From the sequence record PP526941.1: 64,000 nt of DNA; one strand, 5' to 3'. Positions within the stretch are counted from its first letter, which is position 1; each line of letters starts with the position of its first letter. Source of the stretch: Escherichia phage vB_EcoM_ECO78. Under the pieces are notes generated by a model. The model was given only the letters and a program-made list of their open reading frames with translations. It did no database searches and was not told where the DNA came from. The translations under genes and the position numbers were made by a program. Positions 12,242-37,502 of this stretch are shown piece by piece.

Positions 12242-12542
12242 TTTCTTCTCGGTCAAATCGGTGTTTACAATGACGACATTTATAACGAAGATTACTAGTC
12301 TGCCAATGAACCAATTGGACCTGTTCAGTTCCACATTCAGGGCAATTAGGAACGTTTTTAGAAGCACGTTCGCGGCGTTCAACCATGACCATTACAGAAT
12401 CCCAATTAACAGGAGGGCTATAATCATCACAACCATGAATCTTTCCACGCATTTCCAGATCGTCTTCTTCACCAGCCATAATAATTTTAATTAGACTAGA
12501 ATTACTTGAAGCTGCAATGTCTTCTAATAGACGCTTTTTCAT
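12228..12542 (-). CDS. Zinc-ribbon protein (104 aa)
   Basis: Cys pairs CPECG ... CRHCKH; ATGA overlap with upstream gene stop. Confidence 0.6.
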
Positions 12543-34115: not shown

Positions 34116-34679
34116 TTATTTGCTTAGTTTAGTTATTATAGCTTCGGCAGCAGCTTTTAGCTTAGATGCGGTGTTAATACGATTTTTAATTTCAGTATAC
34201 GCATCGCCAAGAACATCAAGGCTATCGGAATAAACACTTACACTATTGCGTTCGCTATTTGAAATAGAACCTTTAGTTTTACGATCAAAATCAGTGTACA
34301 CGTCTTGAAGATCACGGGCTGCCTTCTTTGCATCATCCAATGCATCAAGAGCTTTATTCAAAGCATTAACATATTTTTTAGTATCGAACATATTCTTAGA
34401 AATTTTAACAGGTGCACGTTCAGGAGTAGCTAAGGCAGATTTAGGAACCTGAGCGCCTGATGCTAATTTCTTAGAAATTTTGAAAAATGCTTTATTGAAT
34501 TTATTTTCTTGACTCATCGTAAAAGAACTATTATCAATGTTATACATTTCAATAGCTTTAGCTTTCCACTTAAGAAAATCGCCACGGTCTTTTGGGTCTA
34601 ATTGGAAGAATACTTTAGTAAGATCTGCTTCAGATGGTAATTTTGCTGCTTCGGTTAAAAATTCGGCGTAGGTTTTCAT
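34116..34679 (-). CDS. Internal-protein-like protein (CTS), 187 aa
   Basis: CTS MKTYAEFLTEAA; own SD and terminator. Confidence 0.7.
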   Translation of the reverse strand: MKTYAEFLTEAAKLPSEADLTKVFFQLDPKDRGDFLKWKAKAIEMYNIDNSSFTMSQENKFNKAFFKISKKLASGAQVPKSALATPERAPVKISKNMFDTKKYVNALNKALDALDDAKKAARDLQDVYTDFDRKTKGSISNSERNSVSVYSDSLDVLGDAYTEIKNRINTASKLKAAAEAIITKLSK

Positions 34680-34762: not shown

Positions 34763-34790
34763 AAAAAGCCCCAACCTTTCGGCTGAGGCT
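34763..34790 (-). terminator. Rho-independent terminator (repeat copy 1)
   Basis: GCCUCAGCC-GAAA-GGUUGGGGC + U5 on minus transcript; near-identical to copy at 35317-35345. Confidence 0.6.
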
Positions 34791-34797
34791 AAGAATG

Positions 34798-35271
34798 TTA
34801 TTTGATTTGTTTAGCAGACCAAATGCGGTCTTTAATAATTTTTTGGATGTCTTCAACATATTCAAGAGAGTGAACATGTGGGTTATCTTTGAAACTATAA
34901 GCACGAGCTAACTTTTGGCCTTCGGTTTTGATTACTAAAAGCTCTTTAAGGATAGCTTCATATTTAGCGATAATGCCTTTAACAATATTTTTTTCTTGTG
35001 CAGCTTTAGGATCTGCTTTAGGAGCAGGTTTACCCGAAGCCTTTGCAAAAGCAGCTCCAGTAGCAACTAAACTTTTCCAAGCCATACTAACTGCATTCCC
35101 TGTAAATCCTTCTGCTTTCATATCGCGAGCAAATTGGAATCGTGATTCATCGGAAGCATCTTTATAGGAATATTTACCCGCGGCAATGGCAGCTTTTGCA
35201 ACAGCTTGAATTTCGGTGCTAGATGCTTCATTTAACACCGCTTCATTTAAAAATTGAGCATATGATTTCAT
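34798..35271 (-). CDS. Internal-protein-like protein (CTS), 157 aa
   Basis: CTS MKSYAQFLNEA; Ala/Lys-rich; late promoter upstream. Confidence 0.7.
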   Translation of the reverse strand: MKSYAQFLNEAVLNEASSTEIQAVAKAAIAAGKYSYKDASDESRFQFARDMKAEGFTGNAVSMAWKSLVATGAAFAKASGKPAPKADPKAAQEKNIVKGIIAKYEAILKELLVIKTEGQKLARAYSFKDNPHVHSLEYVEDIQKIIKDRIWSAKQIK

Positions 35272-35307: not shown

Positions 35308-35315
35308 TATTTATA
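35308..35315 (-). promoter_or_regulatory. Late promoter TATAAATA
   Basis: Exact TATAAATA on minus strand about 37 nt upstream of IP gene ATG. Confidence 0.5.
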
Positions 35316-35316
35316 C

Positions 35317-35345
35317 TAAAAAGCCCCAACCTTTCGGCTGGGGCT
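35317..35345 (-). terminator. Rho-independent terminator (repeat copy 2)
   Basis: GCCCCAGCC-GAAA-GGUUGGGGC + U5 on minus transcript, downstream of the structured RNA region. Confidence 0.6.
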
Positions 35346-35389
35346 AAGCCTTGCGGCAACCTTGTCGGGGTTCCACCTGCTAAGGCAAG

Positions 35390-35656
35390 TGTTTGTACGA
35401 AACGCCGGGATTCGAACCCGGTTACCAAGCAGTTGACGCTACTCAATATTTTTAAAAGGCCATATCTCGACCATATCCGAACGTTCCGTCAAAAACGCTA
35501 CTCGGCTTACGGCAAAGATATTTCCTCGAATCGATAATTCGGTGCGCCGTTTCTGCTGTGATGTAAGGGGGCATTAACCGATCGCAAAGATTTGTTAATG
35601 CCAGTCCTTACCCAGGGAACATCAGTCCGACGACTTACCGGTAGCGACCCGGTTTC
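35390..35656 (-). ncRNA. Putative small stable RNA(s), tRNA-like 3-prime module (T4 species 1/2 RNA-like)
   Basis: About 265-nt ORF-free, GC-richer segment at the distal end of the tRNA cluster; hairpins ACCGG/CCGGT and CATTAAC/GTTAATG; T-arm-like CCGGGTTCGAATCCCGG with acceptor-like CGGAACG/CGTTTCG. Confidence 0.4.
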
Positions 35657-36007
35657 TTAATATTCTTTTAAAGCATCAATCTGTTCACGGCGTTTACGCC
35701 ATAAATCAATTGCTTCATACGCAGATTCAGCATTTCGAATTAGCCGACATTTATATAAAGACTTATGATTTTGATATTGTGTAGATAACGGAATTTTATC
35801 TAAAAGGTCTTTACGTTCAAAATATTCGTAACCATCTAAACCAAATGAACGATTTTTAAGAAATTGCCAATGTCCAAATTCGTTTTCAACATAAACATAA
35901 TCTGCATGCTGATAAAGTAAATTAATTACACGTTCAGAAATAACAGTATCATTATGATTAAAATAGAATGTTAAATCATGAACTACTAAATAAACATTAC
36001 CTTTCAT
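35657..36007 (-). CDS. Hypothetical protein (116 aa) inside the RNA gene cluster
   Basis: ATG 18 nt downstream of tRNA-Arg 3-prime end with SD GAGGAAAAT. Confidence 0.55.
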   Translation of the reverse strand: MKGNVYLVVHDLTFYFNHNDTVISERVINLLYQHADYVYVENEFGHWQFLKNRSFGLDGYEYFERKDLLDKIPLSTQYQNHKSLYKCRLIRNAESAYEAIDLWRKRREQIDALKEY

Positions 36008-36025: not shown

Positions 36026-36101
36026 TGGTCGAGGCAGTAGGGATCGAACCTACGACCCAGGACTTAGAAGGTCCTTGCTCTTCCTTCTGAGCTATGCCCC
36101 G
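36026..36101 (-). tRNA. tRNA-Arg (anticodon UCU)
   Basis: 76 nt; cloverleaf by eye: acceptor CGGGGCA/TGCCTCG, anticodon loop CTTCTAA, T-loop GGTTCGATCC, encoded CCA. Confidence 0.8.
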
Positions 36102-36105
36102 TAAT

Positions 36106-36181
36106 TGGGGTGACCGATGGGAGTCGAACCCATGACTACGAGAATCACAATCTCGAGTTCTACCAACTAAACTACGGCCAC
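36106..36181 (-). tRNA. tRNA-His (anticodon GUG)
   Basis: 76 nt; acceptor GTGGCCG/CGGTCAC, anticodon loop TTGTGAT, T-loop GGTTCGACTCC, encoded CCA. Confidence 0.75.
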
Positions 36182-36294
36182 ATTAATACCTACTCCAACA
36201 ATCAAGATGTCTTCACACGAAATTAAGAGAAGAGTGATCAGTTCAACCCTATAATCGCGTCAAGTAGATATTAATGTGACAGTTGTCACAAATT

Positions 36295-36369
36295 TGGCGG
36301 ACGTGATAGGATTCGAACCTATAACCAATCGCTTAACAGGCGATCGCTCTGCCATTGAGCTACACATCC
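36295..36369 (-). tRNA. tRNA-Asn (anticodon GUU)
   Basis: 75 nt; acceptor GGATGTG/CACGTCC, anticodon loop CTGTTAA, T-loop GGTTCGAATCC, encoded CCA. Confidence 0.8.
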
Positions 36370-36373
36370 AAAT

Positions 36374-36460
36374 TGGTGGGGAGTGATGGAGTCGAACCAC
36401 CCGAGTCGCAATGACAATGGATTTACAGTCCACACCGCTACCTCTACGGGATAACTCCCC
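36374..36460 (-). tRNA. tRNA-Tyr (anticodon GUA), long variable arm
   Basis: 87 nt; acceptor GGGGAGT/ACTCCCC, anticodon loop CTGTAAA, T-loop GGTTCGACTCC, encoded CCA. Confidence 0.75.
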
Positions 36461-36473
36461 TTAATTCTTAATT

Positions 36474-36548
36474 TGGTGGCCCTGGGTGGAATTGAACCAC
36501 CATCTGGCGATTATGAGTCGCTTGCTTGAACCTTCCAGCTACAGGGCC
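36474..36548 (-). tRNA. tRNA with anticodon CAU (Ile2-like or Met)
   Basis: 75 nt; anticodon stem-loop GCGACTCATAATCGC resembles tRNA-Ile2 (lysidine type); T-loop GGTTCAATTCC; encoded CCA. Confidence 0.7.
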
Positions 36549-36556
36549 AAATTTTC

Positions 36557-37039
36557 TTATTTTATGTAATATTTATTTAAAAACTTTCTAGCTTGAGTAT
36601 GGCTAACATTTATAGCGTTTGCATAATTTTTAATAAAACCTCGTTCATCCATATTAAAATTTTCTAATATTTTTAATCGTCTAGTTATCTCATCTTGACT
36701 TAAGGTACTTGCATTATTTTTAGAAATTTTTTCTAAGGACTGTGCCGAGTGTTTTCTACCATTAAAATTAAAATTTTTAGATTTTGGAGGAAATCTAGCA
36801 TTTAATCTCGCATCTTTTGTATTTTGATTATTAGTTGCGCAATATATGTTATTTAATGAATATGGTCCTTTATCGCCGAAACGGCACATGCAGTATTCAT
36901 GACCCTTTCTTCCACGCTTATCATAATTTCCCGTCGATTTCCACCAATGCAGCCATTCATCAAAAGTTAAATTCCATTCAATGTTTCTACGTATAGCAGA
37001 ATTCCGCTGAGAAATATATTTTGCATAATCTTCTTTCAT
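36557..37039 (-). CDS. Putative HNH-like homing endonuclease / DNA-binding protein with NUMOD3 motif
   Basis: 160 aa; motif GRKHSAQSLEKISKNNAS (NUMOD3-like), C-terminal HTH-like tail, N-terminal His/Cys/Asn cluster; inserted between tRNA-Ser and the CAU tRNA. Confidence 0.55.
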   Translation of the reverse strand: MKEDYAKYISQRNSAIRRNIEWNLTFDEWLHWWKSTGNYDKRGRKGHEYCMCRFGDKGPYSLNNIYCATNNQNTKDARLNARFPPKSKNFNFNGRKHSAQSLEKISKNNASTLSQDEITRRLKILENFNMDERGFIKNYANAINVSHTQARKFLNKYYIK

Positions 37040-37086
37040 CACAAATTTCTCTACTTATTCAATACACTGAGCTAAATCAGCAAAAC

Positions 37087-37176
37087 TGGCGGAGGCGATA
37101 GGATTTGAACCTATGAGTCGCCGGAGCGACTGCCGGTTTTCAAGACCGGTGCATTAAACCACTCTGCCACGCCTCC
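37087..37176 (-). tRNA. tRNA-Ser (anticodon UGA), long variable arm
   Basis: 90 nt; acceptor GGAGGCG/CGCCTCC, anticodon loop CTTGAAA, T-loop GGTTCAAATCC, encoded CCA. Confidence 0.8.
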
Positions 37177-37178
37177 AG

Positions 37179-37252
37179 TCTCCATACAAGGATTTGAACC
37201 TTGGACCTCCTGATCCCAAATCAGGCGCTCTACCAAACTGAGCTACACGGAG
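37179..37252 (-). tRNA. tRNA-Pro (anticodon UGG)
   Basis: 74 nt; D-arm GCTCAGTTTGGTAGAGC, anticodon loop TTTGGGA, T-loop GGTTCAAATCC; CCA not encoded. Confidence 0.8.
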
Positions 37253-37262
37253 TAAATTAAAT

Positions 37263-37336
<74 letters not shown>

Positions 37337-37341
37337 AAATT

Positions 37342-37428
37342 TGGTGCGAGAAGTGGGACTCGAACCCACAAGGAAATCATTCCGCAGCATTTTAAGTGCT
37401 GTGCCTTTACCAATTTGACCATTCTCGC
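37342..37428 (-). tRNA. tRNA-Leu (anticodon UAA), long variable arm
   Basis: 87 nt; acceptor GCGAGAA/TTCTCGC, anticodon loop CTTAAAA, T-loop GGTTCGAGTCC, encoded CCA. Confidence 0.8.
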
Positions 37429-37429
37429 G

Positions 37430-37502
37430 CTGGGAATAAAGGACTCGAACCTTTGCATCCTGGAATCAAAATCCAGTGCCTTACCAACTTGGCTAATTCC
37501 CA
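37430..37502 (-). tRNA. tRNA-Gln (anticodon UUG)
   Basis: 73 nt; acceptor TGGGAAT/ATTCCCA, anticodon loop TTTTGAT, T-loop GGTTCGAGTCC; CCA not encoded. Confidence 0.8.

Follow-up and report, generated by a model that had tools for sequence, protein, structure and literature searches.

The tail of the tRNA cluster of Escherichia phage vB_EcoM_ECO78 very probably encodes two small non-coding RNAs on the minus strand, rnaD followed by rnaC, which would close the tRNA-cluster transcript before it stops at the terminator at 35318–35345, and of which rnaC is predicted to be tRNA-shaped. All positions given here refer to the window, the whole 64,000-nt stretch of sequence record PP526941.1 that was analysed, and the segment under study lies at 35390–35656. 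By sequence, this segment holds T4-like copies of rnaD and rnaC, entities that are already known; the corresponding stable RNAs of T4, species 2 (rnaD) and species 1 (rnaC), have been catalogued since the 1970s. Their functions were stated to be unknown in 2010, 2022 and 2025 (PMC3014915, PMC9697503, PMC12685909).

Using BLAST, we found that the segment falls on the annotated rnaD (species II RNA) and rnaC (species I RNA) of phages RB3, RB59, RB68 and T4. The preliminary description of this DNA, which had matched the segment to the two T4 species by its position, was therefore right about their identity. In RB3 (AJ884578), rnaD and rnaC are annotated at 870–990 and 997–1136, in T4 (NC_000866) at 71053–71171 and 70908–71046, respectively, and the RB59 record carries both features as in RB3 and T4. 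A four-way alignment was collinear end to end, from the first conserved base of rnaD to the terminator, with an identity to T4 of about 97% over 141 nt for rnaC and about 89% for rnaD. Within Tequatrovirus rnaC was 97–100% identical, and the copy in the window was 100% identical to that of phage SH7. The queried segment as a whole had 98% identity to Shigella phage SH7 and matched 806 phage records, nearly all of them Tequatrovirus, which identifies the window as part of the genome of a T-even-type phage. The rnaC of the window scored 155 bits against a family covariance model (R1) built from 15 members, and its rnaD contains two conserved blocks, of about 50 nt on the 5' side and about 25 nt on the 3' side, together with a central hairpin of the T4/RB3 type.

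The pair spans 35394–35660, with rnaD first, a 6-nt spacer (GAAUUA) and then rnaC, which sits at the distal end of the tRNA cluster, ahead of a conserved trailer and the terminator (Table 1). The T4-style ends of rnaC would be 35396–35534 and the RB3-style ends 35394–35533; since the two annotations differ by 1–2 nt at both ends, the ends of rnaC are uncertain by that much. The conserved block of rnaD begins at 35658, so that its first bases overlap the TAA stop codon (35657–35659) of the 116-aa ORF upstream. An Rfam scan, proposed beforehand as a check, was run against Rfam 15 with both gathering-threshold and E-value settings and yielded no family for rnaC or rnaD; matches in the segment were sub-threshold and attributable to chance, the only one being to tRNA-Sec at 35397–35489 (16 bits versus a gathering score of 47).

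Table 1. Positions of the two RNAs, their predicted structural elements and the signals that follow them in the window.
Feature	Position	Strand	Basis
rnaD ortholog (T4 species 2 RNA), about 118–120 nt	35541–35660	minus	ends by homology to T4/RB3 annotation
rnaD 5' hairpin, ACCGG / invariant loop GUCGCUA / CCGGU	35637–35653	minus	two covarying pairs
rnaD variable apical domain, three unrelated sequence types	35567–35607	minus	alignments
rnaC ortholog (T4 species 1 RNA), about 139–140 nt	35394–35534	minus	97–100% identity to annotated rnaC
rnaC acceptor-stem 5' strand, CGAUUCG	35527–35533	minus	pairs with 35398–35404, covariation
rnaC long arm, about 25 bp with internal loops, in D-arm position	35457–35526	minus	21 of 25 pairs change on both sides
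Long-arm apical loop UUGACG, proposed kissing partner A	35487–35492	minus	complementary to 35433–35438
rnaC hairpin 2, 10 bp, loop CGUCAA at 35433–35438	35423–35448	minus	9 of 10 stem pairs change on both sides
Hairpin 2 loop CGUCAA, proposed kissing partner B	35433–35438	minus	
rnaC T arm, CCGGG-UUCGAAU-CCCGG	35405–35421	minus	5 bp, 99% paired, 2 covarying pairs (G-C, U-A, A-U, U-G)
rnaC acceptor-stem 3' strand CGUUUCG (35398–35404) plus tail U-ACA-A	35393–35404	minus	
Conserved trailer, two small hairpins (CACUUGCC..GCAGGUG; GCC-GCAA-GGC)	35346–35392	minus	folding; conservation
Intrinsic terminator, AGCCCCAGCC-GAAA-GGUUGGGGCU then UUUUU	35318–35345	minus	terminator scan

The general features first noticed in the segment held up. 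Its minus strand contains no ORF of at least 60 aa, and the mechanical ORFs of 26, 40 and 53 aa have differing starts or are missing in relatives. Its GC content is 0.45–0.47, compared with 0.25–0.35 in the adjoining upstream ORF and about 0.41–0.43 downstream. It is also structured and rich in hairpins, as claimed: the 267-nt segment folded better than all of 200 shuffles (z = -3.84), with z-scores of -3.06 for rnaC, -2.90 for rnaD and -4.20 for the trailer and terminator. The strong terminator reported to follow is a GC-rich hairpin of 10 bp that has a GAAA loop and is followed by a U-run, and the trailer that precedes it is kept in T4, VR7 and Dhakavirus.

Ten tRNA genes lie on the minus strand of the window at 36026–37502, the last of them being tRNA-Arg (36026–36101). 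The segment does lie distal to tRNA-Arg, as described, though a 116-aa ORF (35657–36007, minus strand; phrog_3355, no Pfam match) intervenes. This layout is common to SH7 and Paracelsus and is not found in T4, RB3 or RB59; in T4 and RB3 rnaD lies 1–2 nt after tRNA-Arg. The intervening ORF is a difference in context and not in rnaD itself. Since it replaces the tRNA-Arg/rnaD junction of T4, the 5' end of rnaD may differ, or may be made differently, in this phage. In other respects the arrangement is that of T4, namely rnaD, a 6-nt spacer, rnaC, trailer and terminator at the distal end of the tRNA cluster, although the rnaD spacer has CCG here and CCA in T4, and the region downstream holds two phrog_2280 ORFs in place of e.8.

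These two ORFs, of 187 aa (34116–34679) and 157 aa (34798–35271), are tandem paralogs on the minus strand, and the one that was tested had no Pfam match. The rnaC-terminator hairpin (35322–35345) recurs almost unchanged after the 157-aa ORF, at 34767–34790, as AGCC(C/U)CAGCC-GAAA-GGUUGGGGCU-UUUUU. A perfect T4 late-promoter box, TATAAATA, is located at 35308–35315 on the minus strand, where it immediately follows the rnaC terminator and precedes the start of the 157-aa ORF by 37 nt. Within the tRNA cluster, tRNA-Ser and tRNA-Met are separated by a 161-aa ORF (36557–37042, minus strand; phrog_16521, no Pfam match), which sits at about the place of the homing endonuclease gene segB in T4. The 113-nt gap between tRNA-Asn and tRNA-His (36182–36294, minus strand) had no tRNA or Rfam match and folds well (z = -2.95), opening with a GUGACA-ACUG-UGUCAC hairpin; in RB3, tRNA-Arg directly follows tRNA-Asn. 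tRNA-Pro and tRNA-Gln have no encoded CCA (37177–37178 and 37429–37430, minus strand), the next tRNA starting 1–2 nt past the discriminator base, so that both must rely on trimming of the 3' end and on the host CCA-adding enzyme.

The whole 140 nt of rnaC is predicted to fold into a tRNA-shaped four-way junction comprising a 7-bp acceptor stem, a T arm, an arm of ~25 bp and a 10-bp hairpin, the last two taking the place of the D and anticodon arms of a tRNA. This structure was obtained with RNAalifold from 15 rnaC sequences, and the covariance model R1 was then used to align 27 distinct sequences from about a dozen Tevenvirinae genera. Across this alignment 92% of the cells for the 53 predicted pairs were paired, and 37 of the 53 pairs changed on both sides, compared with 21 in shuffles, none of which (0 of 500) reached the observed number. 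When the 3' partner was slid by 1–3 columns, only about 40% of the cells were paired. The predicted fold also includes a 9-nt A-rich linker and one unpaired A; the T arm abuts the 3' strand of the acceptor stem, which is followed by an unpaired U and then ACA.

Compensatory changes in the acceptor stem include an A-U pair that becomes G-C in most other genera and a C-G pair that becomes A-U in phage PM2. The stem contains two U.U mismatches, which are replaced by U-A and C-G in Tegunavirus and by two U-A pairs in PM2 and are conserved as mismatches otherwise. Across the family, the tail reads U, then (A/C/U)CA, then A; most genera, the window included, have UACA, and CCA is encoded in two lineages, the Klebsiella F48-like phages and PM2. 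Position -1 is U or A. The T-loop is non-canonical in Winklervirus and Kanagawavirus CIP9, and the best-conserved parts of the RNA are the junction and the loop-loop contact described below.

This fold changes the reading of the tRNA-like module that had been noticed in the sequence. Its T arm and the adjoining CGUUUCG strand (35398–35421) are as described, but the CGGAACG strand (35482–35488) that had been assigned as the acceptor partner is not: CGGAACG and CGUUUCG are complementary, yet no compensatory changes were observed between them, one pair is broken in 10 of 15 sequences, and the CGGAACG strand belongs to a covarying helix of the long arm. By covariation, the partner is instead the 5'-terminal CGAUUCG. 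Since CGUUUCG pairs with the 5' end of the RNA, the tRNA-like unit would be the whole of rnaC, rather than the over-long internal segment originally proposed, and rnaD lies outside it. We also considered an 11-nt-receptor reading of CCGUAAG/UAUGG in the long arm, which by eye had no consensus match and is missing in several genera.

The two arms of rnaC that have no tRNA counterpart are likely to touch through a 6-bp loop-loop contact. The long-arm loop UUGACG is the exact 6-nt complement of the hairpin 2 loop CGUCAA, and both loops are invariant in most genera. The loops have changed in step twice, to UUGAUG/CAUCAA in Tegunavirus and to UUGGCG/CGCCAA in the Klebsiella F48/Marfa-like lineage; these two changes are independent and affect different positions, and a one-sided change was seen in none of the sequences. 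For this helix alone 99.4% of cells were paired, versus 17–50% with the partner slid. In shuffles, the observed number of doubly changed cells was never reached, and two covarying pairs were reached in 35 of 500. PM2 keeps 4 of the 6 pairs. The contact could form within one molecule or between two; since the 25-bp arm would need a sharp bend to reach the 10-bp hairpin, an intermolecular contact is conceivable. We did not find this pairing described in the literature that was searched.

For rnaD, a structure derived from 18 sequences predicts a hairpin at the 5' end and, after it, a long irregular hairpin whose tip is swappable. Its 23 pairs were formed in 97% of cells, and 7 of them changed on both sides, compared with 3.4 in shuffles (0 of 500 reached the observed value). 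In the 5' hairpin, an A-U pair becomes G-C in RB3 and others, and a C-G pair becomes A-U in phage A5-4. The body has a 7-bp closing helix and an invariant internal loop, GACUGA opposite GAAA, and two further helices covary, one pair being seen as U-A, A-U and G-C. The alignments indicate that the apical domain recombines independently of its flanks. Structure is conserved across T-even phages with compensatory changes, the reverse of the outcome that had been named in advance as telling against stable RNAs.

Several other readings of rnaD were set aside. A resemblance to tRNA could be seen in the 3' ...CACCA of the T4 RNA; the CCA is not conserved, being replaced in relatives by CCG, CAG, CCU or UCC, and a T arm is lacking, so rnaD is not considered tRNA-like. 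A K-turn or loop-E reading of the GACUGA/GAAA internal loop had, by eye, no consensus match. Pairing of an rnaD loop with UAGCG in rnaC would span no more than 5 nt, and some phages have one of the RNAs without the other.

Using BLAST and pattern scans, we found rnaC in Tequatrovirus, Karamvirus, Kanagawavirus, Winklervirus, Gelderlandvirus, Tegunavirus, Gaprivervirus, Moonvirus, Kagamiyamavirus and Mosugukvirus, as well as in Klebsiella F48/Marfa-like phages and two phages without genus assignment. Identity was 95–100% in 683 of 750 phage records for rnaC and extended down to 70% for rnaD, which matched 735 phage records. tRNA genes flank rnaC on both sides in Karamvirus, Winklervirus, Gelderlandvirus, Moonvirus and Kagamiyamavirus; in such positions it typically starts 6 nt past the CCA of the previous tRNA (tRNA-Trp in several genera, another tRNA elsewhere) and stops a few nucleotides before the next. 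In PEi20, Kosakonia phage 305 and VR7, rnaC is present with no tRNA within 500 nt. Exactly the rnaC unit is missing from Dhakavirus, which keeps rnaD, the terminator and the trailer, the latter directly after rnaD. An rnaD homolog with about 71% identity occurs in Escherichia phage A5-4, a member of the Vequintavirinae, at approximately 603–721 in local numbering and 5 nt after tRNA-Tyr, with compensatory changes in two helices. This copy in a different subfamily suggests that rnaD has moved horizontally together with tRNA genes.

Beyond these phages, three IMG/VR pattern scans and one metagenome scan for rnaC returned only Tevenvirinae-type copies or chance matches, and an IMG/VR scan with an rnaD pattern returned only T4-like copies. 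A strict rnaC pattern, which distant relatives could escape, found no copy in 185,579 bacterial and archaeal genomes, and BLAST against E. coli genomes and plasmids returned nothing related. In a Klebsiella F48-like phage, an element of ~60 nt lies between tRNA-Met and rnaC (local positions about 12329–12393, minus strand); its ends, GGGGUGG and CCCACCUC, could pair as a stem of 7 bp, it received no ARAGORN call, and it may be another tRNA-derived small RNA. In Enterobacter phage SonariX (local 474–568), MK327945 and OR352945, the 3' 95 nt of rnaC are labelled tRNA-Met, tRNA-Lys or tRNA-Asn, and many GenBank records have 'hypothetical protein' genes laid over rnaC and rnaD. These labels look like systematic mis-annotation, and an Rfam family for rnaC and rnaD would fix both the tRNA and the protein errors.

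PMC2330249, citing Broida and Abelson, describes a T4 primary transcript of ~1.75 kb that starts at a middle promoter upstream of the tRNA cluster and stops beyond the gene for species I; eight tRNAs and both stable RNAs, species I and II, derive from it. T4 RNAC has been detected by northern blot, and both RNAs were classed as late (PMC9697503). In the window, rnaD and rnaC would be transcribed as the tail of the tRNA-cluster transcript, stopping at the terminator. We infer that RNase P would generate the 5' end of rnaC, because its acceptor and T stems would stack into 12 bp, position -1 is U or A, and among tRNA genes it is spaced as a tRNA would be. Its 3' end would undergo trimming and perhaps repair by the CCA-adding enzyme, as with the tRNA-Pro and tRNA-Gln of the cluster. 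The tRNA-like fold would give rnaC its stability, and the loop-loop contact would lock its body into a fixed shape. Since rnaC has no anticodon arm, it cannot decode; this, along with the best conservation being at the junction and the loop-loop contact, favours a shape-dependent role as a tRNA mimic. We offer that role as speculation: rnaC may act in trans by binding a tRNA-recognising host or phage factor, with no part in decoding. T4 deletions that span the rnaC/rnaD region are viable on laboratory hosts.

A more specific form of the tRNA-mimic proposal, which we regard as rather unlikely, is that rnaC is a tRNA decoy or adaptor in which only the acceptor/T-arm half, the part seen by tRNA enzymes and tRNA-directed nucleases, is kept and the loop-loop-locked body replaces the decoding half, so as to titrate or redirect a host factor such as an anti-phage tRNA nuclease, with rnaD as a separately mobile host-range determinant. 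To a similar degree improbable is a function in cis only, in which the two structures would mark processing sites in the tRNA/ORF transcript and protect its 3' end as a cap, the RNAs released from it being inert by-products. The location at the 3' end of the operon, beside the terminator, agrees with such a cap, as do the abutment of rnaD on an ORF stop codon in this phage and the 50 years that have passed without a known function (PMC3014915). However, rnaC is found mid-cluster, and not 3'-terminal, in other genera, and a cap would have no need of the loop sequences and loop-loop complementarity that have been kept. The high identity of rnaC across records, next to a far more variable rnaD, also argues against inert by-products, as does a convergent change during adaptation to a new host: when a T4-like phage was evolved on E. 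coli ECOR34, every line acquired the same SNP in rnaD (PMC12685909). We consider it quite unlikely that the two are small RNAs that regulate host or phage mRNAs by base pairing, although they have been labelled 'small regulatory RNAs' or suggested to have a regulatory role (PMC9697503, PMC12685909), and the single-stranded A-rich linker of rnaC and the invariant loops of both RNAs could act as pairing sites. The two invariant loops of rnaC covary with each other and are therefore probably occupied, the clustering of invariant positions at the junction and helices is more in keeping with an RNA that works through its shape than with one that works through a seed, and the E. coli genomes and plasmids searched held no related sequence that would hint at a target or an origin.

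Two further explanations concern whether the segment encodes such RNAs at all. That the 3' 95 nt are a degenerate or over-long tRNA gene, which corresponds to the acceptor register of the preliminary description, would account for a T arm beside a 7-nt strand complementary to CGGAACG, for the tRNA-Sec match and for the tRNA labels in GenBank. It is highly improbable, given the stem without compensatory change and the place of its 5' strand in the long-arm helix, the lack of a 5-bp/7-nt anticodon arm or an ARAGORN call, and an Rfam score far under the gathering value. The suggestion that the segment encodes small proteins is barely credible. Minus-strand ORFs of 40 and 53 aa do exist, and many records have CDS annotations under the match, but the start codon varies among ATG, TTG and GTG, or the ORF is missing, in relatives. 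Moreover, rnaC is flanked by tRNAs in other genera, so the ORFs cannot be conserved there, the stem substitutions are compensatory, and the curated T4 annotation has no CDS at this position.

rnaC and rnaD are among the oldest orphan non-coding RNAs, and their T4 genes were already catalogued. The comparative analysis provides covariation-backed folds for both RNAs, the corrected acceptor register and the proposed loop-loop contact, together with the reach of rnaC across about a dozen Tevenvirinae genera, usually amid tRNA genes, and the apparently independent movement of rnaD, even into the Vequintavirinae. The tRNA clusters of T-even phages are now seen as anti-defence loci: Septu cuts tRNA-Tyr, and T6 escapes it via amplification of its tRNA-Tyr gene (PMC13096335). 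This makes the proposed tRNA-mimic role of rnaC directly testable.

Compared with tRNA (RF00005), rnaC shares a predicted 7-bp acceptor stem formed from its two ends, a 5-bp T stem capped by a UUCGAAU loop and placed immediately 5' of the acceptor's 3' strand, the stacking of acceptor and T arm into 12 bp, an unpaired base, a single-stranded NCA/CCA tail, and a location among tRNA genes with tRNA-like spacing. It differs from tRNA in its length of 140 nt, in having no D arm, anticodon arm or anticodon, and in its two acceptor U.U mismatches and 9-nt A-rich linker. ARAGORN made no tRNA call on rnaC, and the Rfam tRNA model had no match to it at E ≤ 10.

The likeness extends to the tRNA-like domain of tmRNA, to YrlA and to viral tRNA-like structures, and is in each case a functional analogy only. 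Unlike tmRNA, rnaC has no tag reading frame and no general G3.U70, and neither ARAGORN nor Rfam found a tmRNA, with ARAGORN applied to the window. In YrlA the RNA ends form a Ro-binding stem, whereas those of rnaC would form the acceptor stem; the YrlA model (RF02553) did not match the segment, and its only match was sub-threshold, over tRNA-His/Arg (17.7 bits versus 69). What rnaC would share with all of these RNAs is an acceptor/T-arm half joined to a non-tRNA body that is held by tertiary pairings, and by analogy rnaC, like these mimics, is likely to be handled by tRNA enzymes.
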